From Dehalococcoidia bacterium (lineage in GTDB: Bacteria; Chloroflexota; Dehalococcoidia; SM23-28-2; RBG-16-64-32), in NCBI GenBank assembly GCA_030649945.1, contig JAUSFE010000083.1:5194-69193 (forward strand): 64,000 nucleotides of DNA, read 5' to 3'. Numbering within the stretch: position 1 is the stretch's first letter; the number at the start of each line of letters is the position of its first letter. Shown here piece by piece: positions 1 through 48,642 of the stretch. The translations under genes were made by a program, and so were the position numbers. The notes under the pieces are model-generated. The model was given only the letters and a program-made list of their open reading frames with translations, did not search any database and was not told where the DNA came from.

Positions 1-2370
1 ACCACCTGCGTCCACGAAGTTCGTTGGCCTGTTCCCCGTGTACGCGTACCCGTTGCCGAGGGTGACCGGATCACCCCACACTCCGAGCGGGTCGCGGCTG
101 ATGAAGCGCCCGCTCACCGGGTCCTGGTAGCGCGCCTGCCAGTAGTAGAGGCCGCTCTCGGCATCCAGGCGGCGGCCGGTGAACAGGTAGGGGTTGGCGG
201 TGCCGTTGCCGCCGACCGTGACGGCGTCGTCGCCGCCGAAGTCCACGACGCCGTTGGCGCCGGATGTGTAGCTGACCGGCCGCCCGTAGGCCTCGTACTG
301 GTAGCCTCCGAGCCTGCGGGCGCCGCCGGCCGCGGGACAGCCGTCGTTGACGATCGTGTCGCCGTCGTCGTCCACTGCGTTGACGCATTGCGCGCCGGCT
401 TCCGGCGGCCCGGACGCCGCACAGCCGTCGTTGACCGTCCCGTCGCCGTCGTCGTCGGCAGCGTTAGCGCACTCCCCGCCCCGTTCCGTGCGGGTGCTGA
501 GGGCGAACACCGAGCCGAGCGTGTTCTGGTGGTAGAAAAGCCGGTCGTCGCCGGTGCCGATAGCGCTGTCGCCGCCGCCCAGGTTGCGGTCCAGCACCAG
601 CGGCTCGTCGATGGAGGCCCCGTACACGTATTGCTGCACCAGCGCGTCCGATACGTTCCGCTCCTCGATCTCCTGCCAGCCGTCCAGGTAGAAGTCGGTC
701 GTGCCGTTGAGGCCGCCGGAGTTCGTGACCACCTTGCGGGCGCGCCGGCCGGCGGCGTCGTAGGAGTATGTGCCGAGGAGGGCGCTGTCGCTCTTCCTTC
801 TGACCTCGCGCAGCCGGTTCTGGTAGTCCCAGGTCATCAGCAGCTTGCCGTCGTCCGTCTCGTTGCCGTTGTTGTCCGAGAGGACTGTGAGCGATGCGCT
901 CGGGTTGCGGCTGATGATCTCGTTGAACGAGGAGTCCTCGCGGGTCTCGGTGACGGGGCCGCCGCTCTCCGTGCTTAGCACCTCGTCCCAGTTCCCGGCG
1001 CCGTCCAGCTTCCAGTTGTCGTGCAGCGGCGTGACGGCGCCACCGCCGGCGCGGTCGAAGTTGAGCAGGCGGTCGCCGGAGTCGTAGCCGTAGGCCTCGT
1101 TGTTGGCCGCGTTGTGCAGCTTCGTCTCGCCCTGCTTGTTGTTCGCCCGGTCGTAGGTGTGGGTGAAGCCGACGATGAGCGGGGAGCAATCGGGGTCGGC
1201 GGCGTCGGTGAACCCATCGGGGCCGTTGTCTATCGCGTCGGCGCAGGTCCCGGGACCAGCGCCGTCCTCGCGATCGCCGGGGGCGGCGCGTAGCTCCTGC
1301 TTCTCGACGGCCCTGCCGAGACCGTCGTAGCCAACGTCCGTGGTGCCCGCGTAGCTGTCCAGGTACGTCTCGCGGCTGGCATTCATGGGATACGATCGCT
1401 GGAGCACGCGGCCCGCGCCGATGTAGTCGTAGTCAACGATATCCTGGGCGGCGCCGGTGTCCTTCAACGTGTTCAGCCGATCGAGGGTGTCGTAGGTGGA
1501 GTCGAGTTCGCGGCTGAAGGCGCCGGTCTGCGGGTAGGTCAGCTTGGCGCGCAGGTTCTCGGCCCGCCAGGAGGAGGACACGGCCCTGGCCGCCAGCGCA
1601 CCGATCTGCTGCGTCTCCTCGATGGCGCGGCTCCGACTGTCGTATGCATACGTGATGATCGAGTCGTCGCTTGTGGGCGACGGCTCGTTGTTGTCCGTGG
1701 CGCGGGTCATGCGGGAGCGGCCGTCGTACTGGTAGGTCGTCGCCGTCGTCCCCACGACGCCGGCGCCGCGGGTGACCGCGCAGGAGGTCCCGCGGTCGAT
1801 GGCGTCGAAGGCGCAGGCGGTGACGGAGGTGTTCTCATCGGTCACCTGCACGACGTTGTCGTCGCGGTCGTACCCGTAGGTGATCGTAGTGTCGGGGTCG
1901 TCGCGGCCGGCCAGGGCCGGCGCCACGACGATCCCCTTGGTCTCGGTCCGGCTGCGGTTGAGGTTGTCGTAGCTGTACTGGGTCTGGTTGCCCAGGTCGT
2001 CCGTGAGGCTGGCCTGGAGGGAGTTCTGGTCCCAGGCGTAGTCGAACCCACTCCAGTCGCGGACGCCGCCCGTAGTCGCGAGCGGCTGGAAGAACCACGA
2101 CCGGAAGACATTCTTGTTCGCGCCTATCGCCGTCAGCGCGTCATCCAGCGCGCTGCCCGAGCGCATCTGGTACCAGCACCAACCGTCGCTGTTGGCGTTG
2201 TAGATGTTCAGGCCGGTGAACTGGTACGGCTGGCCGTCAACCAGCAGCTGCGTGCCGCTGCGCGTGACGAACCCCGGCGGAGCCGAGGCAGCGGGCAGCA
2301 CGCCGGCGACTATCGCCAGCGCCAATGCGGCGACCAGAAGACCAAGAAGGCGGCCCGCCAAGTGCCCCAC
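1..2370 (-). CDS. RHS/YD-repeat protein, partial (C-terminal tip lies outside the window)
   Basis: Hand translation of the minus frame from GTG 2370 (GGGAGG just upstream, in-frame TAA at 2398-2400). It shows a signal-like LLGLLVAALALAIVAGVLPAASA, many YD units (YSYDNLNRSRTE, YGYDRDDNVVQV, YAYDSRSRAIEE, YSYDAAGRRARK) and an RHS core end PYLFTGRRLDAESGLYYWQARYQDPVSGRFISRDPLG. The frame stays open to position 1. No competing same-frame ORF is in the track. Confidence 0.85.
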   Translation of the reverse strand, partial: MGHLAGRLLGLLVAALALAIVAGVLPAASAPPGFVTRSGTQLLVDGQPYQFTGLNIYNANSDGWCWYQMRSGSALDDALTAIGANKNVFRSWFFQPLATTGGVRDWSGFDYAWDQNSLQASLTDDLGNQTQYSYDNLNRSRTETKGIVVAPALAGRDDPDTTITYGYDRDDNVVQVTDENTSVTACAFDAIDRGTSCAVTRGAGVVGTTATTYQYDGRSRMTRATDNNEPSPTSDDSIITYAYDSRSRAIEETQQIGALAARAVSSSWRAENLRAKLTYPQTGAFSRELDSTYDTLDRLNTLKDTGAAQDIVDYDYIGAGRVLQRSYPMNASRETYLDSYAGTTDVGYDGLGRAVEKQELRAAPGDREDGAGPGTCADAIDNGPDGFTDAADPDCSPLIVGFTHTYDRANNKQGETKLHNAANNEAYGYDSGDRLLNFDRAGGGAVTPLHDNWKLDGAGNWDEVLSTESGGPVTETREDSSFNEIISRNPSASLTVLSDNNGNETDDGKLLMTWDYQNRLREVRRKSDSALLGTYSYDAAGRRARKVVTNSGGLNGTTDFYLDGWQEIEERNVSDALVQQYVYGASIDEPLVLDRNLGGGDSAIGTGDDRLFYHQNTLGSVFALSTRTERGGECANAADDDGDGTVNDGCAASGPPEAGAQCVNAVDDDGDTIVNDGCPAAGGARRLGGYQYEAYGRPVSYTSGANGVVDFGGDDAVTVGGNGTANPYLFTGRRLDAESGLYYWQARYQDPVSGRFISRDPLGVWGDPVTLGNGYAYTGNRPTNFVDAGG

Positions 2371-2450
2371 GCACCTCCCTTGCGGATAATGCAGCCATTA
2401 TACCCCTGCGGGAATGTCGCAGACGGCGACGCCACTCGGGGCGGGGGGCA

Positions 2451-2492
2451 CTATCAACTATCAACTATCAACTATCAACTATCAACTATCCA
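2451..2492. repeat. Heptanucleotide tandem repeat: CTATCAA x5 plus one CTATCCA
   Basis: Read directly. Units start at 2451, 2458, 2465, 2472, 2479 and 2486. The array lies between the ACAD stop (2546) and the RHS start (2370). Confidence 0.95.
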
Positions 2493-2545
2493 CTTCCTCA
2501 CGGCGTGCAGGTCAGGTTGAAGAACGGGATGAACATAGCCCTCCC

Positions 2546-3739
2546 CTACGCCCGCGGCAGGCCCAGACCCCGCTGCGCGACGATGTTGCGCTGGATCTCG
2601 CTCGTCCCTCCAGCGATCGTCTGGCCCAGCCTCACCATGTAAGTCAACGCAAACTGACCCCGCAGGCGCGCCCACTTCTTCGACTCGGACCGCACCGGCC
2701 CGTACAGTCCCATAATCTGAACGCCGGCATTCGCCACCCTCTGCGACAGCTCCGAGAGGTACACCTTCGCCACGGACGACTCCGCGTTCGGCACCTCGCC
2801 CCGCGCCTGCATCGAGGCCACACGGTAGGAGAGGAAACGCCCGACCTCGGTCTCGATCATCAGGTCAGCGAGCAGGTGGCGCACGCGCGCGGAGCCTGCC
2901 CTGAGCCCAGTCGAAGGGGCCGCGCCGTTGCCAGACGTCTCCCGCCAGTAGCCCACGAGGTCGTTCAGCGCCCGCCGCGACTGCGCGGAGCTGCCGATGC
3001 CCGAGCGCTCGAAGTCCAGCAGCGCCGCGCCCACGTACCAGCCCCGGTTCTCGTCGCCCACGATGTTCTTCGCCGGCACACGCAGGTCCTCGAAGAACAC
3101 CTCGTTGAATCCGTGCAGGTCCGCCAGGTTGATCAGCGGCCGGTGGCTGATGCCGGGCGCCCGCATCGGCGTCAGGAAGAACGAGATGCCCTTGTGCTTC
3201 GGCGCCTCCTGGTCCGTCCGCGCCAGCAGGAACATCCAGTCCGCCCGGTGCGCGTTCGAGGTCCAGATCTTCTGTCCGTTGATCACGTAGTCGTCGCCGT
3301 CGCGCACCGCGCGCGTCTGCAGCGACGCCAGGTCGGACCCCGACCCCGGCTCAGAGTAGCCCTGGCACCACGTCACCTCGCCCGAGGCGATGCCCGGCAG
3401 GTGCTGGCCCTTCTGCTCATCCGTGCCGTACATCATGAGCACCGGCCCCAGCATGTTGACACCGAAGATGTCCAGCAGGGGGGCGCGGTGGTAGGCCATC
3501 TCCTCGCGCATGATCACCTGCTCCAGGATCCCCATGTCGGCGCCACCGTATTGCCTGGGCCAGTGCGGCACCAGCCAGCCGCGCGCCGCCAGCTTCTTGT
3601 GGAACTGTCGCCGGAACCGCCAGTCCTCCTCGCTGTCTGCCTCCTCGTCCTGTTCCCTGTCCTCTGGCAGTTCCTTGCGCAGGAACTCCCGCACCTCCAC
3701 ACGGAACGCTTCCTGTTCCTGGCTGAACCTGTAGTCCAT
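2546..3739 (-). CDS. acyl-CoA dehydrogenase family protein (paralog 1)
   Basis: 397 aa ORF. N-terminus is MDYRFSQEQEAFRVEV and C-terminus is IAGGTSEIQRNIVAQRGLGLPR. It is clearly paralogous to the ORFs at 9590 and 10878. AAGGAG lies before the ATG. Confidence 0.9.
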   Translation of the reverse strand: MDYRFSQEQEAFRVEVREFLRKELPEDREQDEEADSEEDWRFRRQFHKKLAARGWLVPHWPRQYGGADMGILEQVIMREEMAYHRAPLLDIFGVNMLGPVLMMYGTDEQKGQHLPGIASGEVTWCQGYSEPGSGSDLASLQTRAVRDGDDYVINGQKIWTSNAHRADWMFLLARTDQEAPKHKGISFFLTPMRAPGISHRPLINLADLHGFNEVFFEDLRVPAKNIVGDENRGWYVGAALLDFERSGIGSSAQSRRALNDLVGYWRETSGNGAAPSTGLRAGSARVRHLLADLMIETEVGRFLSYRVASMQARGEVPNAESSVAKVYLSELSQRVANAGVQIMGLYGPVRSESKKWARLRGQFALTYMVRLGQTIAGGTSEIQRNIVAQRGLGLPRA

Positions 3740-3919
3740 GGCGTACTCCTTGCGACTCTCCTTCAGTGAGACGGGCTGCCGCCTGCCGGTGGCGGCCCCA
3801 TTCTACTACGGCGCTGCCAACGGCGGCACAGCCTGTCACAAGGTGGACGCTCTTACCAAATAAGACACAAAGACAGAAAGCCACAAGAGGATTCTGTCCG
3901 GTCCCACTCCATCACGAAA

Positions 3920-3957
3920 CATCTGCGTCCATCCGCGCCCCATCCGCGTCATCTGCG
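3920..3957. promoter_or_regulatory. Four phased CATCYGCG boxes (reverse complement CGCRGATG) in a divergent promoter region
   Basis: Boxes at 3920, 3930, 3941 and 3950, spaced 10, 11 and 9 bp, between the divergent ACAD (start 3739) and ccr (start 4020). Confidence 0.35.
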
Positions 3958-4019
3958 GCTAATCCCCCACTCGCCGCTGTGCTAATCTTTGCCATAGCCC
4001 CAACTGCAGGAGGACGCCC

Positions 4020-5270
4020 GTGGTTTCCGTGAAGGACCTCTACGAGATCGGCGAGATACCGGCCATCGGCGAAGTGCCGAGGTATATGTACGCCCAGGTC
4101 ATCCGGCCGGAGCGCTTCGGCGAGCCTGTGAACGCCTTCCAGACGGAGAAGGTGGAGACGCCGGCGGACCTGAAGCCCAACGAGGCGCTGGTGCTGGTGA
4201 TGGCCGCCGGCATCAACTACAACAACGTCTGGGCCGCCCTCGGCATCCCGCTCAACGTCATCAAGGCCCGCGAGCGCGAGGGCGATACCACCGGATTCCA
4301 CATCGGCGGCAGCGACGCCTCCGGCATCGTCTACAAGACCGGCAGCGCCGTCACGAACGTGAAGGTGGGCGACCGCGTGGTCATCCACTGCGGCATGTGG
4401 GACGAGGACGACCCGCTGGTGAAGGCCGGGAACGACCCCATGTTCAGCCCGAGCTTCAGGATCTGGGGTTACGAGTCCAACTGGGGCTCCTTCGCCCAGT
4501 TCACGAAGGTGCAGGCCCACCAGTGCCTGCCCAAGGCCCCGCGCCTGACGTGGGAGGAGGCCGCGGCCCCCATGCTCGTCGGCGCCACCGCCTATCGCAT
4601 GCTGCGCGCCTGGCCCCCGCACACGGCCGGGAAGGGGGACGTGGTGCTGGTCTGGGGGGGCTCCGGCGGCCTGGGCTCCATGGCGATCCAGATCGCGCGG
4701 GAGTTCGGCGCCATCCCCGTTGCCGTCGTCTCCAGCGAGGAGAAGTTCGAGTTCTGCCTGAAGCTGGGCGCGAAGGGCTGCATCAACCGCAAGGAGTTCG
4801 ATCACTGGGGCATGCCGCCGCACTGGACGGACACGGAGGCCTACAACCGCTGGGTGCAGGGCGCCCGCGCCTTCGGCGGCAAGCTCTGGGAGGTCCTGGG
4901 CGAGCGCCGCAACCCGCGCATCGTCTTCGACCACCCCGGCGAGGACACCATCCCCACGTCCATCTTCGTCTGCGATACGGGCGGCATGGTGGTGATCTGC
5001 GCCGGCACCAGCGGCTACAGCGCCGTCGTGGACCTGCGCTACCTGTGGATGCGCCAGAAGCGGCTCCAGGGCTCCCACTTCGCGAACGACGAGCAGGCGG
5101 GGGCGTTCAACCAGATGGTCATCGACGGCCGCATCGACCCCTGCCTGGGCGAGACGTACACCTTCGAGCAGATAGGCCACTGCCACCAGCTGATGTCCCA
5201 GGGCAAGCAGCCGCCGGGGGTGATGGCGGCCCTGGTGAGCGCGCCGCGGGCGGGGCTGCGGGACCTCTAG
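4020..5270 (+). CDS. ccr: crotonyl-CoA carboxylase/reductase-like enoyl reductase (MDR superfamily)
   Basis: 416 aa. The N-terminus [33 protein letters not shown]...[19 protein letters not shown] matches the Ccr family as I remember it. GTG start sits 5 nt after GGAGGA. Confidence 0.8.
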
Positions 5271-5285
5271 GCGAGATTCCCGTAG

Positions 5286-5307
5286 GGAGGTACCTTCAGG
5301 TGCCTCC
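5286..5307 (+). terminator. Hairpin GGAGGTACC-TTCA-GGTGCCTCC just after the ccr stop
   Basis: 9-bp stem with one G-T wobble and a 4-nt loop, 16 nt after the stop at 5270. There is no T tract, so terminator function is uncertain. Confidence 0.35.
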
Positions 5308-5333
5308 AACCGGGGCGGGGCGGGGCTGCTACC

Positions 5334-5440
5334 GTTTGGTTGTTTCGCGGCGGTGGTATCTGGCGTTTGGTTGTTTTCCCGATTTTGTTTCGCTTTGGGG
5401 GCGGTTTGTATTTGCGTCCGGCGGTTTTGTTTGGTTGTTT
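5334..5440. repeat. Three perfect GTTTGGTTGTTT 12-mers in a G+T-skewed tract
   Basis: Copies at 5334-5345, 5365-5376 and 5429-5440, plus a degenerate GGTTTGTATTT near 5403. The surrounding ~120 nt has almost no A on the plus strand. Confidence 0.9.
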
Positions 5441-5550
5441 TTTCTGCGGTGACGCAGGGCGCGCGTAAGAGGTGGCTGAGACGAGGATAGCGGTTGTGGT
5501 GGGGAGCTGGGAGGGGTAAATGGCAATGGGGGTGAGCTCGGGTCCCAAGG

Positions 5551-5595
5551 TTGACGCAAAGGCCGGACAGTGCCAGTATGCTAATCAGCGGATTA
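5551..5595 (+). promoter_or_regulatory. Promoter-like TTGACG-17-CAGTAT plus inverted half-sites TAATC-N4-GATTA upstream of the XRE gene
   Basis: TTGACG at 5551-5556, CAGTAT at 5574-5579, TAATCAGCGGATTA at 5582-5595. The 20-nt box at 5576-5595 is 16/20 identical to 6662-6681. Confidence 0.35.
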
Positions 5596-5609
5596 TCGGA
5601 AGGAGGCGT

Positions 5610-5924
5610 ATGTCACTCGGAAGAGTCATACGGGAGAGGCGCAAGGAACTTGGGATGAGTCAAAAGCAGCTGGCGGAAAAGTTGCTGAAGGAGGATGGCG
5701 AGCCAATCTCGCCTCAGTACCTTAACGACATAGAGCTGGAACGGCGAGCGGCACCGGAATATATCCTCGATCAGCTGTCCAGAATCCTTAGGTTGCCCCG
5801 TGATCACCTATACCTCTTGGCAGGTCAGTTCCCGCCCGATGTGCGTCCGAAAACGTATGACGCTCCACGCTTTCAGCGCGCGTTCCAGGCGTTCCGGAAG
5901 GCATGGAAGAAGCGCGATGGTTAG
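5610..5924 (+). CDS. XRE-family helix-turn-helix transcriptional regulator (CapH-like)
   Basis: MSLGRVIRERRKELGMSQKQLAEKLL is a typical HTH_3 N-terminus. I chose ATG 5610 because GGAAGGAGG lies 3 nt upstream. The track ORF starts earlier, at 5520. Confidence 0.85.
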   Translation: MSLGRVIRERRKELGMSQKQLAEKLLKEDGEPISPQYLNDIELERRAAPEYILDQLSRILRLPRDHLYLLAGQFPPDVRPKTYDAPRFQRAFQAFRKAWKKRDG

Positions 5925-6636
5925 GTGGGTGAAGGATACGACCGGCAGGTTCCCTGAACGACCACACTATGATCCGAGGGAGTTGGATGCCGACTGCGAG
6001 GGCTACATTGAAGCGTTTCTGAGGCGACGGCACGGCACAGTGTCCTACCCGATTGATACGGAGGACTTGACCGTGCTGTTGGAGGACGTTGTAGACGCAC
6101 TCGACCAGTACGCAGATCTGTCGGAGTATGGGGACGAGATACACGGCGTTACGGAGTTCCACATTCGGGGCAAGCCGGTAGTACGGATTTCAAAGGATCT
6201 AACGATAGAAGGATACCGAAGCAACCGCCTACGAACCACTCTGACTCATGAGTTAGGGCACGTACGTTACCACAATTTCCTTTGGAAGATGGTGGGCCGA
6301 AGGATGACGGCAACGGTTCTCCGCTCGGCTTCTCCTCGCTGTCACCGCAGCGCGATCGTATCCGCCAGCCAGGGAGACTGGATGGAATGGCAGGCGGCTT
6401 ATGCCTGCGGCGCATTCCTCATGCCGAAGACCGCAGTTGTGTCTGTAATAGAGCACCTGCTTGGCACGACGAGCTTTAAGCCAATCTTTGCCGAGAGTGT
6501 TGAAGGCCGACAGGCCGTAGGGGCGATCCACGAAGCGTTCCAGGTGTCGGAGGAGGCTGCGCGCGTCCGGCTTTATCGGCTGACGCTAGTCACGCCCGGC
6601 GAGCCAGTTGCAACATTGTTCGATTCTGGGCCGTAA
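5917..6636 (+). CDS. ImmA/IrrE-family zinc metallopeptidase (CapP-like)
   Basis: HELGH (HExxH) within LRTTLTHELGHVRYHNF. ATG 5917 overlaps the XRE stop (ATGGTTAG). The ORF at 5800 extends upstream in the same frame. Confidence 0.8.
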   Translation: MVRWVKDTTGRFPERPHYDPRELDADCEGYIEAFLRRRHGTVSYPIDTEDLTVLLEDVVDALDQYADLSEYGDEIHGVTEFHIRGKPVVRISKDLTIEGYRSNRLRTTLTHELGHVRYHNFLWKMVGRRMTATVLRSASPRCHRSAIVSASQGDWMEWQAAYACGAFLMPKTAVVSVIEHLLGTTSFKPIFAESVEGRQAVGAIHEAFQVSEEAARVRLYRLTLVTPGEPVATLFDSGP

Positions 6637-6639
6637 GCG

Positions 6640-6689
6640 TTGCAATTTTTTTTCGCATGCGGTATGCTTATCGGCGGATACGCGGATTA
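6640..6689 (+). promoter_or_regulatory. Promoter-like TTGCAA-17-TATGCT plus TTATC-N4-GATA and GGATTA half-sites upstream of the Ubl gene
   Basis: TTGCAA at 6640-6645, 17-nt spacer, TATGCT at 6663-6668. The box at 6662-6681 resembles 5576-5595. Confidence 0.4.
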
Positions 6690-6705
6690 CCAGAGAGGAG
6701 GGACC

Positions 6706-6984
6706 ATGAGAAGTCAAACCACCGACCAGGCAGGCGAAGGAATGGAGAAACCCATGAAGAAGGCGAAGTACCAAGTGGACATCGAGGGCACGCTCTATGA
6801 CTGGGATGCGGCCACCATAACAGTTCCGCAGATCCGCGAGCTCGGCGGGCTGCCCGAAGAATTGCCGGTACTAGAGATCGACCTGAAGACGAACGAGCAG
6901 CGGCAGCTGGCGGAGGATGAGATTATCAACGTTAAGCCTGGTGTGGGCTTTTCAAAGAAAGTCCGATGGGCGCGGGGCTGCTAG
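6706..6984 (+). CDS. ubiquitin-like beta-grasp protein (multiubiquitin-type, BilA-like)
   Basis: KYQVDIEGTLYDWDAATITVPQIRELGG...IINVKPGVGF resembles the Multiubiquitin (PF14452) family as I recall it. ATG 6706 follows GAGGAGGG. The protein ends ...RWARGC. Start is uncertain (6640, 6742 and 6754 are also possible). Confidence 0.65.
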   Translation: MRSQTTDQAGEGMEKPMKKAKYQVDIEGTLYDWDAATITVPQIRELGGLPEELPVLEIDLKTNEQRQLAEDEIINVKPGVGFSKKVRWARGC

Positions 6985-7370
6985 AGGAACGCCTAGCGAA
7001 GGAACTCGCGCTTCTTCGATCCCGGTTCCCGGACACCGGGTACCGGGAAGACGGACATTGGTTCCTTCTCGCAAAGTACCCGGGACCACCAGCTGTTTGG
7101 ACGAATCCCGCGCCAGACATATGCTTCCAGGTCTCGACAGGTTACCCCGGACAGAAGCCGTATGCCTTCTATATCAGACAGCCGTTCGAGTTGATGACTG
7201 GTGGTGAGGTAAGAAACACGACACCGTCGGCCGAGCCGCCGTACGAGGGAGTGTGGGTGAAGTTCTCGTGGGACATACCGGATTGGCGCGCGACGGACGA
7301 TCTGACTGGTGCTTGCAACCTGCTGAATTGGGCGCTCAGCTTTCGTGCGCGACTGGAGGAGGGGGGGTGA
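6966..7370 (+). CDS. prokaryotic E2/UBC-like protein (family E type, BilB-like)
   Basis: 134 aa. LAKELALLRSRFPD...STGYPGQKPYAFYI...FSWDIPDWRATDDL..NLLNWA fits the E2/UBC family protein pattern. It overlaps the Ubl gene by 19 nt. Confidence 0.7.
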   Translation: MGAGLLEERLAKELALLRSRFPDTGYREDGHWFLLAKYPGPPAVWTNPAPDICFQVSTGYPGQKPYAFYIRQPFELMTGGEVRNTTPSAEPPYEGVWVKFSWDIPDWRATDDLTGACNLLNWALSFRARLEEGG

Positions 7371-7894
7371 TCATCCGGACCATTCTTCAAATCTCGACGT
7401 GCATGCATGAACGGCTTTGGGGTCATTTACTCCGTGGAGGTCGAGAGCAGGCGGCGTTCATCCTCGCCCACGTTGAAAGGAATCCCAACGGAGTGCGGAT
7501 GGTTGGCCGTCAGGGGTACCTTGTACCGCCCGAGGACTTTCAGAACCATTCGTGGTACCACGTGGCGCTGACCGACGAGGCCCAGCAGCGAATTCTACAG
7601 TCGGCGTGGACCGCTGGATGCGCCCTCGTTGAGCTTCACGCCCATTTGGGTAGCTGGCCTGCGGCGTTTTCCGCAACCGATATGGAGGGCCTTCTTGAGT
7701 TTGCGCCCCACGCCGCATGGCGTCTTAGGCAACCGTACCTGGCGCTAGTTGTGACTCCAAACGGCTTTGATGCGCTATTTTGGGCGTCCAAGGACGCTTC
7801 GCCCGGGGCTCTAGAAGAGATGCGCGTAGACGATCAGGTGTTCCGTCCGACGGGCCGGACTTTCACAGCAATGGAGAAGATGGCAAGTGAGTGA
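7367..7894 (+). CDS. JAB/JAMM (MPN+) metalloisopeptidase (BilC-like)
   Basis: The upstream Glu (GGREQAAFIL) and ELHAHLGSWPAAFSATD match the JAMM E...HxH...SxxD signature. GTG 7367 overlaps the E2 stop (GTGA) and follows GGAGGAGGGGGG. Confidence 0.85.
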   Translation: MIIRTILQISTCMHERLWGHLLRGGREQAAFILAHVERNPNGVRMVGRQGYLVPPEDFQNHSWYHVALTDEAQQRILQSAWTAGCALVELHAHLGSWPAAFSATDMEGLLEFAPHAAWRLRQPYLALVVTPNGFDALFWASKDASPGALEEMRVDDQVFRPTGRTFTAMEKMASE

Positions 7895-8747
7895 CGGACG
7901 ATACCACCGGCAGGAATTACTGTTTGGGACGAAGGGCCAGGAACTGATAGAAGGTTGCCGTGTGGCGATCGTTGGCCTGGGCGGACTTGGAAGCCATGTA
8001 GCGCAGCAACTCACTTACCTTGGCACCCAGAAGTTCGTTCTGGTTGACGGGGACTTTGCGGAGCTGTCGAATCTGAACCGCCTGGTCGGCGCTTGCGAAG
8101 ATGACCTAGGTAGGGCAAAGGTCGAAATCGCTCGGGATGCCATTCTGAAGGTCTCTCGGGCCGCTATCGTAAGAGAGGTACGGGAAAGCGTAGTCTCTGC
8201 CGGGGGATTTTCTGAAATTCTGGGTAGTCAGTTCGTATTTGGCTGCGTGGACGACGATGCGATACGGTTCGTGCTCAATGAACTGTGTCAGGCATACGAG
8301 ACGCCGTACATGGATCTGGCCACGGACATCGACGCTAAGGAGCACTCCTTCGGTGGACGTATCGTGTTCACCGACGGGCGCGCATGTTTGGTTTGTCTAG
8401 ATGCGCTGGAGCCAAACACGATCAGGAAGGCACTCGAAACGCGCGAACAGGCCGAAGAAGAAGACAATATCTACGGCGTACGAGTCGGTGCCCTTCCTCA
8501 AGCGGGCCCCGCCGTGGTCTCCTTAAACGGTGTCATCGCGTCGTTGGGTGTCACCGAGTTCCTATCCGAGATGACGGGTCTACGGCGGGCCAATATTTAT
8601 CTAGAGTATCGGGGATCGCTAGGAATCGTTAGGTGTCAGACGGAAGCGGCCGTACAGAGTTGCTACTATTGCAGGACTGTCCGGGGAAAACGAGCCGAGG
8701 CCAACGTCGAACGATACCTGGCTATATGGCCGACGATCACAGAATGA
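7887..8747 (+). CDS. ThiF/MoeB/E1-like adenylyltransferase (BilD-like)
   Basis: VAIVGLGGLGSHVAQQL (GxGxxG), VLVDGDFAELSNLNRL, and two CxxC pairs (CLVC, CYYC). GTG start overlaps the JAB gene end by 8 nt. Confidence 0.9.
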   Translation: MSDGRYHRQELLFGTKGQELIEGCRVAIVGLGGLGSHVAQQLTYLGTQKFVLVDGDFAELSNLNRLVGACEDDLGRAKVEIARDAILKVSRAAIVREVRESVVSAGGFSEILGSQFVFGCVDDDAIRFVLNELCQAYETPYMDLATDIDAKEHSFGGRIVFTDGRACLVCLDALEPNTIRKALETREQAEEEDNIYGVRVGALPQAGPAVVSLNGVIASLGVTEFLSEMTGLRRANIYLEYRGSLGIVRCQTEAAVQSCYYCRTVRGKRAEANVERYLAIWPTITE

Positions 8748-8757
8748 GCTACGCCGC

Positions 8758-8940
8758 CTACTCCCCCCGCGGCAGGCCCAGGCCGCGCGTGGCGATGATG
8801 TTGCGGTTGACCTCGCTCGTGCCGCCGGCGGGGGTGGAGGCGACGGCGCCCAGGTAGGCGCGCGCGTAGCGGCCCTTGTTCGGCGCGCAGCGGTTGATCG
8901 CGGACCCGGCGCCGGCGTTGCGGTCGCCCTCCAGTGGGCT
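8758..8940 (-). pseudogene. Orphan 3' fragment of an acyl-CoA dehydrogenase gene
   Basis: Encodes LEGDRNAGAGSAINRCAPNKGRYARAYLGAVASTPAGGTSEVNRNIIATRGLGLPRGE, matching the C-terminus of the 9590-10807 gene. By hand alignment, nt 8766-8934 align to 9595-9763 with about 7 mismatches. Homology stops near 8940. Confidence 0.8.
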
Positions 8941-9034
8941 GCGAGCCGCAGGCGTGTCACCCGCCCTCCCCGCGCCATCCACCCCTTACACCTCCCCGCC
9001 GGCCACGCTACGCTGACCGCGGGAGGTGGTCCCC

Positions 9035-9589: not shown

Positions 9590-10807
9590 CTAGTCCCGCG
9601 GCAGGCCCAGGCCGCGCGTGGCGATGATGTTGCGGTTGACCTCGCTGGTGCCGCCGGCGATGGTGGAGGCGACGGCGCCCAGGTAGGCGCGCGCGAAGCG
9701 GCCCTTGTTCGGGGCGTAGCGGTTGATCGCGGACCCGGCGCCGGCGTTGCGGTCGCCCTCGAGCTGCCCGTACAGCCCCGCGAGCTTGATCGCCGTGTTC
9801 GCCACGCGCTGGTTCAGCTCCGCGGCGTAGAGTTTGACCGCCGCCGCCTCGTGGTTGGGCACCAGGCCCCGGTTCTGCATGCTGATCACCCGGTACGAGA
9901 GCAGCCGCGCCGTCTCCGCCTCGATGGCCCGCTCCGCCAGCTCGCAGCGGATCGTCGGCTGCACTTCGCCGCGGCGGTCCTTCACCCACAGCACCAGGTC
10001 CTCCACCTGCTGCCCCTGCGCGATCGACGAGCCAATGGACGAGCGCTCGAAGTCCAGCGTCGTCGCCGCCACGTACCAGCCGCGGTTCTCCTCGCCCAGC
10101 AGGTCTTTGCGGGGGACGCGGACGTTGTCGAAGAAGACCTCGTTGAACATGGGCGTGCCGGCCATGTTGACCAGCGGCCGCACGCTGACGCCGGGCGACT
10201 TCATATCGAGCAGGAAGTACGATATGCCCTTGTGCTTGGGCGCCGCCGGGTCCGTGCGCGCCAGCAGGATCATGCGCTGGGCGTACTGGGCGCCGGAGGT
10301 CCAGATCTTCTGGCCGTTGACGATGTAGTCGTCGCCGTCCTTGACCGCGCTGGTCTGCAGCGACGCCAGGTCCGAGCCCGATCCCGGCTCCGAGAACCCC
10401 TGGCACCAGACGGCGTCGCCGGAGAGGATGCCGGGCAGGTGCTCCGTCTTCTGCTCGCCGGCGCCGTAGACGATGATGGTGGGGCCGGCGAAGCCGACGC
10501 CGATGCCGCCGGGCCGGGGCGCGCGCGCCTTCGCCATCTCCTCGTTGAAAACGAACTGCTCCATGATGGTCATGCCCGCGCCGCCGTACTCCTGGGGCCA
10601 GGCGGGAGCCACCCAGCCCTTCGCGGCCAGCTTCTTCATCCACGCCTGGTAGCGCTGCATGGCGGCGGGCCCGCCCTGGGTGGCTGCGTGCGCCGCGCCG
10701 CGGGCATCGGCGATATCGCCGTCGCCGTCGCTGCGGTACTCGCGGGCGATGAAGTCGCGCACCTCGGTGCGGAAGGCCGCTTCGGCGGGTGAGTCGTGGA
10801 AGTCCAT
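9590..10807 (-). CDS. acyl-CoA dehydrogenase family protein (paralog 2)
   Basis: 405 aa, MDFHDSPAEAAFRTEV...GGTSEVNRNIIATRGLGLPRD. Confidence 0.9.
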   Translation of the reverse strand: MDFHDSPAEAAFRTEVRDFIAREYRSDGDGDIADARGAAHAATQGGPAAMQRYQAWMKKLAAKGWVAPAWPQEYGGAGMTIMEQFVFNEEMAKARAPRPGGIGVGFAGPTIIVYGAGEQKTEHLPGILSGDAVWCQGFSEPGSGSDLASLQTSAVKDGDDYIVNGQKIWTSGAQYAQRMILLARTDPAAPKHKGISYFLLDMKSPGVSVRPLVNMAGTPMFNEVFFDNVRVPRKDLLGEENRGWYVAATTLDFERSSIGSSIAQGQQVEDLVLWVKDRRGEVQPTIRCELAERAIEAETARLLSYRVISMQNRGLVPNHEAAAVKLYAAELNQRVANTAIKLAGLYGQLEGDRNAGAGSAINRYAPNKGRFARAYLGAVASTIAGGTSEVNRNIIATRGLGLPRD

Positions 10808-10877: not shown

Positions 10878-12065
<1,188 letters not shown>

Positions 12066-14600: not shown

Positions 14601-14690
14601 TGGCGGAGGGGGTGGGATTCGAACCCACGGTACCCGTGAGGGTACACACGCTTTCCAGGCGTGCCCAATCGGCCACTCTGGCACCCCTCC
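14601..14690 (-). tRNA. tRNA-Ser (anticodon GGA), CCA encoded
   Basis: Reverse complement reads GGAGGGGTGCCAGAGTGG...CACGC-CTGGAAA-GCGTG...long variable arm...GGTTCGAATCCCACCCCCTCCGCCA. Confidence 0.9.
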
Positions 14691-14790: not shown

Positions 14791-14882
14791 TGGCGGAGGG
14801 GGTGGGATTCGAACCCACGGTACGCCAAAAGACGTACAACGGTTTTCGAGACCGCCCCGATCAACCACTCCGGCACCCCTCC
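14791..14882 (-). tRNA. tRNA-Ser (anticodon CGA), CCA encoded
   Basis: Reverse complement reads GGAGGGGTGCCGGAGTGG...GCGGT-CTCGAAA-ACCGT...GGTTCGAATCCCACCCCCTCCGCCA. Confidence 0.9.
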
Positions 14883-48564: not shown

Positions 48565-48642
48565 TGGTCGGGGTGGGCGGATTCGAACCGCCGACCTCAC
48601 GGTCCCGAACCGTGCGCTCTAGCCTGACTGAGCTACACCCCG
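48565..48642 (-). tRNA. tRNA-Pro (anticodon CGG), CCA encoded
   Basis: Reverse complement reads CGGGGTGTAGCTCAGTCAGG...CACGG-TTCGGGA-CCGTG...GGTTCGAATCCGCCCACCCCGACCA. Confidence 0.9.

Follow-up and report, generated by a model that had tools for sequence, protein, structure and literature searches.

The closest described relatives of the element reported here are operons for the conjugation of ubiquitin-like proteins (Ubls). Class 6e, defined by a polyUbl, an E2/RWD-like domain that lacks the catalytic cysteine, a fused JAB-E1 protein, and a metal-binding protein (Iyer 2006, PMC1779556), was renamed Bub by Ye et al. 2024 (PMC11601596). Bub conjugation runs through a tyrosine oxyester on the E1 (Y370) and a serine oxyester on the E2 (S333, together with H335 and D299); BubE (DUF6527) is a serine protease, and BubCD cuts BubAB after a conserved glycine (PMC11601596). 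Bil systems, in contrast, depend on catalytic cysteines in both the E1, a tandem IAD-AAD-CYS protein, and the E2 (PMC10557695, PMC11601596). Here, we analyze a window of 64,000 nucleotides from a Dehalococcoidia bacterium (assembly GCA_030649945.1, contig JAUSFE010000083.1, positions 5,194 to 69,193 of the forward strand). Six of its genes, all in the same direction, encode an XRE-family helix-turn-helix (HTH) protein, an M78 metallopeptidase, a Ubl, an E2-fold protein, a JAB/JAMM metallopeptidase, and a ThiF-type E1 (Table 1).

Family of the conjugation cascade

We find that the conjugation machinery belongs to the Bub (6E) family and is not the Bil/ISG15-like machine that an earlier note on this DNA had taken it for. 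The best explanation for the six-gene element is a horizontally acquired, transcriptionally gated Ubl-conjugation system of Bub type (6e), minimal and fully unfused, to which we give a probability of about 0.7. Among solved structures, a Citrobacter Bub protein ranks first or second in closeness to each of the four cascade proteins. Pfam assigns the Ubl to Multi_ubiq (29.2 bits; cut-off, 24.5) and the E2 to Prok-E2_E (26.4 bits; cut-off, 25), a pair of families that denotes class 6e. The earlier note was right that Multi_ubiq/Prok-E2_E/JAB/ThiF operons had been foreseen by comparative genomics, namely, as class 6e (Iyer 2006, PMC1779556).

Structure-based comparisons point the same way. The AlphaFold2 model of the Ubl has a beta-grasp core at residues 21-85 (predicted local distance difference test, pLDDT, about 88), and its top Foldseek matches are the Citrobacter and E. 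coli BubA proteins [against BubA(155-229): template modeling (TM) scores 0.60/0.71, root mean square deviation 2.2 Å]. With the E2, a single-sequence search of the PDB returned only noise, and a profile of the family had BubB as its top PDB match. The E2 model (pLDDT 78.8) likewise has Citrobacter BubB as its top Foldseek match (probability 1.0, TM 0.58/0.60), ahead of Atg3, Ubc9, and Ube2W. In a Pfam check of all six proteins, five were above threshold; the JAB protein alone had no Pfam match, and no Pfam JAB domain appeared in it even at E-values up to 10. However, five of eight JAB orthologues do reach Pfam Prok-JAB, and a profile of the eight matches one PDB entry only, Citrobacter BubCD, where it aligns to the JAB domain motif for motif (2.3e-7). 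The domain identities first proposed (XRE, M78, beta-grasp Ubl, E2 fold, JAMM, and ThiF E1) all hold.

A Bil (ISG15-like) system, in which a thioester E1-E2 cascade would place the Ubl on phage tail or structural proteins, does share features with the window. Type I and II Bil operons also comprise four separate genes, the order Ubl-E2-JAB-E1 is that of bilABCD, CapH/CapP pairs accompany 15% of Type II Bil operons (PMC10557695), and the structural neighbors of the window Ubl include one Type II Bil Ubl, Methylobacterium BilA. The enzymes themselves, however, do not fit. Bil E1s have tandem IAD-AAD domains, a mobile CYS domain, and a catalytic cysteine; the window E1 is a single ThiF domain of 286 amino acids (aa) that lacks all of these, and its only invariant cysteines are zinc ligands. 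Likewise, the E2 has no conserved cysteine, whereas Bil E2s have a catalytic cysteine with an adjacent histidine. Pfam places both the E2 and the Ubl in 6e families, and the best structure and sequence matches are Bub proteins, not Bil. With PADLOC v2, which should include ISG15-like models, the Ubl, E2, and JAB proteins drew no match, and the E1 matched CBASS E1-E2 models alone. The targeting of phage structural proteins in the earlier note is likewise borrowed from Bil. A Bil system is thus very improbable here.

We also considered a sulfur-carrier or cofactor module of the ThiS/MoaD-ThiF/MoeB type, which would conjugate no protein and which the earlier note had named as a finding that would refute its own reading. 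The best single PDB match of the E1 is indeed MoeB (8e-18), followed by the E1 domain of BubCD (2.4e-14); NCBIfam ranks ThiF/MoeB models first, and the E1 retains a Cys4 zinc site. Those NCBIfam matches, however, lie far below their cut-offs (TIGR02356, 89 bits against 275; NF004281, 80 against 266). Moreover, the operon includes an E2-fold protein and a JAMM peptidase, its Ubl is Multi_ubiq rather than ThiS/MoaD, no thiamine or molybdopterin genes lie nearby, and the whole module is a low-G+C (GC) island under an XRE/M78 switch. We consider this alternative scarcely credible, even less so than a Bil system, and retain the Bub assignment.

Other databases gave little further. NCBIfam does not name the Ubl, E2, or JAB protein at the family level, and the PHROGs matches were confined to the regulators and to ThiF-like families of a generic kind. 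When we searched phage genomes by tblastn, using the E1 as query, only generic ThiF-like matches at 29-33% identity turned up, and so this gives no support for a phage-borne system.

Gene layout and predicted chemistry

The closest known operon type is Type I Bub (6E.1), represented by BubAB-BubCD-BubE of Citrobacter sp. RHBSTW-00271 (Ye, Gong, Chambers & Corbett 2024, PMC11601596). The window shares with it a Multi_ubiq Ubl with a conserved glycine near its terminus, a Prok-E2_E protein with an invariant serine at the catalytic position and no catalytic cysteine, a JAMM peptidase with the E/HxH/SxxD signature, a single-domain, homodimer-type E1 with an invariant tyrosine and no cysteine in the crossover loop, and frequent CapH/CapP-like regulators. 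It differs in that the four cascade parts are four open reading frames (ORFs), each with its own start and stop, so that neither Ubl and E2 nor JAB and E1 are fused, and there is no BubE. Furthermore, the Ubl is one beta-grasp domain without an N-terminal domain, most Ubls related to it end at the glycine and need no maturation, the E2 has Tyr66 and Asp103 in place of Asp299 and His335, and the E1 keeps both CxxC zinc pairs. Type II Bub (6E.2; E. coli ZDHYS365 BubA-BubBD-BubE) resembles the window in its separate Ubl gene, its E2 serine, and its predicted oxyester. Type II operons, however, have a fused E2-E1, usually no JAB, and always BubE, whereas the window has a JAB gene between unfused E2 and E1 genes and lacks BubE.

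This layout is not confined to the window. We gathered related loci by exact protein sequence look-ups (L001-L003 and L008-L013), a scan of GTDB genomes that yielded Gemmatimonadota and Dormiibacterota metagenome-assembled genomes (L004-L007), PLSDB (L014), and a scan of JGI metagenomes (L015-L036). By tblastn, Ubl, E2, JAB, and E1 follow one another as separate genes in about 30 of these loci, wherever the contig reaches, the only exceptions being L014 and the decayed L008/L009. The recurrence of this order argues that the arrangement is not due to chance. The BubAB and BubCD fusions of Type I are absent from the window and from the roughly 30 loci. Precomputed Pfam annotations and fresh 2025 Pfam scans found no DUF6527 (PF20137) among the neighbors of L001-L014, and the window island has no room for a BubE gene.

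We find the same tendency among E2 proteins at large. Searched exhaustively with the E2 profile, 1.84 billion cluster representatives yielded 249 E2 clusters (at 50% identity) at E ≤ 1e-3, 144 of them at E ≤ 1e-10. By size, the best 150 of the 249 comprise 110 standalone E2s, 22 fusions of one Ubl with an E2, five fusions of three Ubls with an E2, and 13 fragments. One fused relative, P0121 (367 aa), matches both BubA (2.5e-21) and BubB (8.6e-4), which ties the standalone E2 clade to bona fide BubAB. The published Bub catalogue began from operons that contain DUF6527 (PMC11601603), and a clade lacking BubE would therefore not have been collected.

The element looks new as a fully unfused, BubE-less variant with a single-domain Ubl, an altered E2 site, a zinc site in the E1, and a co-directional switch with two operators. 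The four-separate-gene layout does not appear in the Bub accounts that we compared (PMC11601596, PMC11601603), although Table S1 or the 6E-defining papers might list some examples. We regard it as an even bet that these loci form a third, uncatalogued Bub-like architecture (“Type III”). This would be defined by separate single-domain Ubl, E2, JAB, and E1 genes, no BubE, a zinc-site E1 with a catalytic tyrosine, and an E2 serine without either His/Asp or Lys/His partners.

The two exceptions to the unfused order are of different kinds. On a plasmid of Candidatus Tenderia electrophaga (L014; CP013100.1, positions 4302-6749), where all the genes are annotated “hypothetical protein,” three Multi_ubiq repeats are fused to the E2 in a protein of 347 aa. 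This locus has an E2 of the same subfamily as the window (39% identity), separate JAB and E1 genes, no DUF6527, and an adjacent integrase. Unlike the window, its Ubl consists of three repeats fused to the E2, and no XRE/M78 pair was detected. Its layout seems intermediate, lying between that of published Type I operons and that of the window. In L008/L009 (positions 6001-6945), the Ubl gene is intact (83 aa, ending KRG), the ORF after it is JAB-like but truncated and degenerate, and there is neither an E2 nor an E1 gene. We rejected these decayed loci, in which the Ubl is an orphan, as a further context.

The E1 carries the residues expected of a Bub enzyme. In an alignment of 11 loci, the invariant positions are GxGGxG (30-35), N64-R65, D122, D124, R127, D143, R158, C167/C170, C259/C262, and Y196-G197, which bears out the nucleotide-binding motif and the two CxxC pairs noted earlier. 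The four zinc ligands are the only invariant cysteines. The crossover loop, from C170 to the GP(A/S)VV motif, contains no cysteine, and there is none between C170 and C250. Tyr196 lies in this loop, no more than three residues from BubCD Y370 in a HMMER alignment.

The E2 likewise relies on no conserved cysteine. Position 53 is cysteine in 35 of 163 relatives and serine or alanine in the close ones, and Cys117 occurs in the window alone. Ser101, in contrast, which belongs to the (F)SW motif, is conserved in 145 of the 148 relatives that span the column. Columns 66/101/103 read Asp/Ser/His in 18 of about 160 members, matching BubB D299/S333/H335, and Tyr/Ser/variable in about 140, among them the window (Tyr66/Ser101/Asp103); histidine at column 103 almost never occurs together with tyrosine at column 66. 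Since this covariation reproduces the BubB triad, Ser101 is the equivalent of Ser333. As judged from residue patterns, the cascade is predicted to use the Bub oxyester relay, from Tyr196 to Ser101, rather than thioesters.

It could be argued instead that the E2-fold protein is an inert, RWD-like adaptor that binds the Ubl. Adenylation would then fall to the E1 by itself, which would either hand the Ubl on directly or go no further than activating it. Inactivity of the 6e E2/RWD-like domains was indeed the prediction of Iyer et al. 2006 (PMC1779556). The window E2 also lacks the S-x-H motif and the aspartate of Type I Bub, and without these partners the reactivity of Ser101 is less certain. Yet no polar residue of the family is better conserved than Ser101, and the corresponding S333 of Citrobacter BubB is needed for conjugation both in vitro and in cells (PMC11601596). 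An inert E2 therefore seems unlikely to us, if more plausible than the Bil and sulfur-carrier alternatives, and we favor the Tyr-to-Ser relay.

The Ubl is compact, as the earlier note had remarked, and this is part of what distinguishes the variant: 45 relatives, 75-98 aa in length, each consist of one domain, and their C-terminal Arg-Gly hardly varies. Of 46 sequences, 36 end exactly at the glycine, nine, including that of the window, run on for a further 1-12 residues, and one was not scorable. The window Ubl ends R90-G91-C92, one residue past the conserved glycine. Its start codon is preceded by a good AGGAGG site and gives a disordered N-terminal tail of 16-20 aa, the length of which varies among relatives. 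In the JAB protein, E27, H91-x-H93, and S102-x-x-D105 are present and invariant in the eight orthologues, in agreement with the JAMM signature read earlier from the window alone. A Ubl that ends at glycine does not require the JAB peptidase for its maturation. Given the lack of BubE, the likeliest general task of this peptidase is deconjugation, and the window enzyme presumably must also remove Cys92.

Regulatory pair and operator-like boxes

Directly upstream of the cascade lies an XRE/M78 gene pair. HTH_3 and Peptidase_M78 matches and a PADLOC capP match (1.2e-6) sustain the proposal that it is a likely CapH/CapP-type switch. The two proteins are 50% (XRE) and 43% (M78) identical to their orthologues in L001. 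The M78 protein has the active-site residues H111-E112-xx-H115 and E157. Between HExxH (111-115) and Glu157, it has an insertion of about 40 residues with Cys142, retained in L001, which, more speculatively, might be a CapP-like cysteine-switch loop. The capP match covers only the peptidase core (profile positions 60-154 of 242), and Pfam detects no GAF domain.

The pairing of such regulators with this machinery is not new. CapH/CapP-like pairs were reported with 6e systems by Lau et al. 2022 (bioRxiv 10.1101/2022.04.27.489752), and they occur with 31% of 544 Bub operons (PMC11601596), as well as with the Type II Bil operons mentioned above. CapH/CapP, ImmR/ImmA, and DdrO/IrrE all have, like the window, an XRE HTH gene adjacent to and translationally coupled with an M78 gene. 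The window pair further resembles CapH/CapP in lying directly upstream of the operon that it would control, and in the possible cysteine-switch loop. There are also differences. The CapH/CapP genes of Lau et al. are divergent, whereas the pairs in the window, L001, and L018 are co-directional with the operon; the window has two operator copies, one of them apparently autoregulatory; and Pfam detects no counterpart in the window M78 protein of the C-terminal GAF domain of CapP, an enzyme activated by single-stranded DNA.

We find two copies of an operator-like box, ATGCTAATCAGCGGAT upstream of the XRE gene and ATGCTTATCGGCGGAT before the Ubl gene. The 16-nucleotide (nt) pattern ATGCTWATCRGCGGAT, with up to two mismatches, has exactly two matches in the 64 kilobases (kb) of the window, where 0.07 are expected. 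L001 has the same two-copy arrangement despite an XRE protein that is only 50% identical, and in L018 the box lies between the M78 and Ubl genes. At all three loci, the Ubl-proximal box begins inside a -10-like TA(T/C)GCT, which lies 17 nt past TTG(C/A)(A/T)(A/T). The promoter-like element noticed earlier in the M78-Ubl spacer can be recognized by eye, but a consensus scan called no promoter at threshold and no terminator at the operon ends. This cis-element with two operators is a new detail. Its layout would be compatible with a repressor that occludes both its own promoter and that of the operon.

Across the related loci, the XRE/M78 association is common but variable. An M78 peptidase gene is adjacent in 15 of about 25 informative loci, and four more have a divergent XRE gene where the contig ends. 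Overall, at least 60% of the “Type III”-like loci would be under XRE/M78 control, compared with the 31% of published Bub operons. Divergent pairs, either as separate genes or as an HTH-M78 fusion, are found in L002, L003, L004, L006, L007, L010/11, L012/13, L016, L017, L023, L026, and L032. A Dormiibacterota-type clade (L005, L029/30, and L035) has an XRE-like gene only, and in L022 and L028 a sigma/LuxR-like HTH protein replaces the pair. The M78 peptidases of different loci are too divergent to detect one another by tblastn, which suggests that the association has been repeatedly assembled or replaced. Since the pair is found in both orientations and its members come from unrelated sequence families, we argue that it is functionally linked to the cascade.

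One locus offers a direct comparison with the window. In L003 (GCA_040961615.1, positions 1-6200), a cassette with 52-65% identity lies, as in the window, between a ccr homologue and an acyl-CoA dehydrogenase gene. The two cassettes thus look like occupants of the same chromosomal site. The XRE/M78 genes of L003 come from another sequence family and are arranged divergently, as if the regulators had been exchanged beside a cassette that kept its position. Separately, in the Dormiibacterota-type clade, an uncharacterized protein of 183-188 aa is encoded beside the cassette (L005, 4228-4794, minus strand; L029, 2009-2560, plus strand). It has the motif ...NA(V/L)FNAWPYWREYLSSTLNRA... and no Pfam match.

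Genomic setting and biological role

The anatomy first described for the six genes, with its coordinates and overlaps, was reproduced in full from the list of ORFs and the sequence (Table 1). The M78 start codon overlaps the XRE stop by 8 nt, and Ubl/E2 overlap by 19 nt, E2/JAB by GTGA, and JAB/E1 by 8 nt. GC is 0.56-0.60 across positions 5501-8500, as against 0.65-0.72 on both sides, in agreement with the lower GC reported before. The six genes therefore form a compositionally foreign island, which in our reading was acquired horizontally.

Table 1. Features of the window, numbered from its first nucleotide.
Feature	Position	Strand	Basis or remark
Acyl-CoA dehydrogenase gene	2546-3739	-	
Crotonyl-CoA reductase-like (ccr-like) gene	4020-5270	+	
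CGTTTGGTTGTTT, three copies	5333-5440		spacings 31 and 64 nt
Low-GC island with the whole six-gene module	5500-8750		GC
Operator-like box 1, ATGCTAATCAGCGGAT	5578-5593	+	17 nt upstream of XRE start codon
XRE-family HTH repressor (CapH-like), 104 aa	5610-5924	+	Pfam HTH_3 6e-10; PADLOC HTH_VI 8e-9
M78 (ImmA/IrrE/CapP-like) zinc metallopeptidase, 239 aa	5917-6636	+	Pfam Peptidase_M78 2.5e-6
M78-Ubl spacer	6637-6705		69 nt
Promoter-like TTGCAA-17 nt-TATGCT	6640-6668	+	found by eye
Operator-like box 2, ATGCTTATCGGCGGAT	6664-6679	+	overlaps -10 of promoter-like element, before Ubl gene
Single beta-grasp Ubl (BubA-like), 92 aa	6706-6984	+	Pfam Multi_ubiq PF14452
E2-fold protein (BubB-like), 134 aa	6966-7370	+	Pfam Prok-E2_E PF14462
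JAB/JAMM metallopeptidase (BubC-like), 175 aa	7367-7894	+	motifs and orthologue profile
ThiF-type E1 (BubD-like), 286 aa	7887-8747	+	Pfam ThiF 2e-32
Acyl-CoA dehydrogenase gene, 3' fragment (ORF)	8758-8982	-	
Direct repeat, first copy, 169 nt	8766-8934		96% identical to second copy
ORF, 145 aa	9026-9463	+	N-terminal GGRRPGAGAPRGNMNALKHGAYS motif; weak NCBIfam terminase-small-subunit-like match, 2e-4
Acyl-CoA dehydrogenase gene, intact	9590-10807	-	
Direct repeat, second copy, 169 nt	9595-9763		
Acyl-CoA dehydrogenase gene	10878-12065	-	
tRNA-Ser pair, adjacent	14601-14690 and 14791-14882		anticodons GGA and CGA
tRNA	48568-48642		

The flanks of the island are metabolic: the crotonyl-CoA reductase-like gene and three paralogous acyl-CoA dehydrogenase genes, the repeat families of which are 64-76% identical, surround it. 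The spacer of 340 nt between the ccr-like gene and the island holds the three CGTTTGGTTGTTT copies, other short G/T-rich repeats, and, adjoining them, two weak terminator-like hairpins; the repeats may mark the left edge of the island. On the other side, one copy of the 169-nt direct repeat is a 3' fragment of an acyl-CoA dehydrogenase gene, and the other is the 3' end of the intact gene. These copies enclose only the 145-aa ORF and not the six genes, and were therefore rejected as attachment (att) sites of the island. The pair is probably what a small insertion into the gene's 3' end left behind, separate from the six-gene island. In L003, a homologue of the enclosed ORF (59% identity over 49 aa) lies on the opposite side of the cassette (1143-1289, minus strand), and the ORF thus appears to move relative to the cassette. 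At threshold, Rfam identifies no family other than tRNAs in the window.

Taking these features together with the precedents of CapH/CapP, ImmR/ImmA, and DdrO/IrrE, we propose the following working model. The XRE repressor would bind a box of ~16 nt over the -10 elements of its own promoter and that of the Ubl operon, keeping both off. DNA damage or phage infection would activate the M78 peptidase, which would cleave the repressor and thereby de-repress the four genes. The JAB peptidase would then trim Cys92 from the Ubl and expose Gly91, by analogy with the biochemistry of BubCD. If the chemistry follows that of Citrobacter Bub, the homodimeric E1 would adenylate Gly91, and Tyr196 would accept the Ubl as a tyrosine oxyester. 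The Ubl would pass to Ser101 of the E2 as a serine oxyester, and onward to lysines of target proteins. In the absence of BubE, the JAB peptidase would probably also reverse the conjugates.

Several observations weigh against a gated, Bub-type conjugation system at this locus. The E1 scores slightly higher with MoeB than with BubCD, and keeps the ThiF/MoeB zinc site. The hidden Markov model alignment of the E2 with BubB ends just before Ser101, so that the register comes from covariation and fold rather than from residue-level superposition, and Y66 and D103 stand where Type I Bub has the partners of its catalytic serine. On the regulatory side, the resemblance of the M78 protein to CapP is confined to the peptidase core, with no GAF domain detected, and the strict promoter scan called nothing. 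Finally, the window island is surrounded by metabolic genes, with no defense island there, and the Bub operons themselves gave no phage protection in the hands of the authors who described them (PMC11601596).

Our best guess for the role of the system is antiphage or stress defense, based on the defense-island and mobile-element contexts of its relatives. Their neighbors include integrases, PemK, DUF2726, SNF2/NOV_C helicase, RES, AbiJ, PIN, ResIII, and methyltransferase genes. The same machinery might, however, serve a host response to DNA damage or stress, modifying host proteins rather than defending against phage. DdrO/IrrE-type XRE/M78 modules control DNA-repair regulons, and in both the window and L003 the module lies between metabolic genes, apparently at the same chromosomal site. 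Having seen no phage protection, the authors of the Bub studies themselves raise a stress response as an alternative (PMC11601596, PMC11601603). On the other hand, the GC of the module is foreign, and several relatives lie beside integrase, toxin-antitoxin, Abi, helicase, or methyltransferase genes. A purely host-directed stress response is a serious rival, though we judge it the less probable, at perhaps one chance in four.

To our knowledge, no ubiquitin-like cascades other than Bub use oxyester instead of thioester intermediates. The version in the window is minimal, with four small proteins, no second protease, and no multi-domain Ubl, which should ease reconstitution, structure determination, and the search for targets. 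It also offers a test of whether the Tyr-to-Ser relay needs the accessory residues described for published systems. If the “Type III” architecture is real, the JAMM peptidase would be its only maturase and deconjugase, and surveys anchored on DUF6527 would have missed it. Such an architecture could also be the ancestral one, with the gene fusions of the oxyester ubiquitination pathway arising later. The number of E2 clusters that we find, with standalone sizes predominating among the best 150, indicates that DUF6527-based catalogues under-count the family. Lastly, the XRE/M78 link and the defined operator-like box provide a direct handle on the signal that induces these systems.

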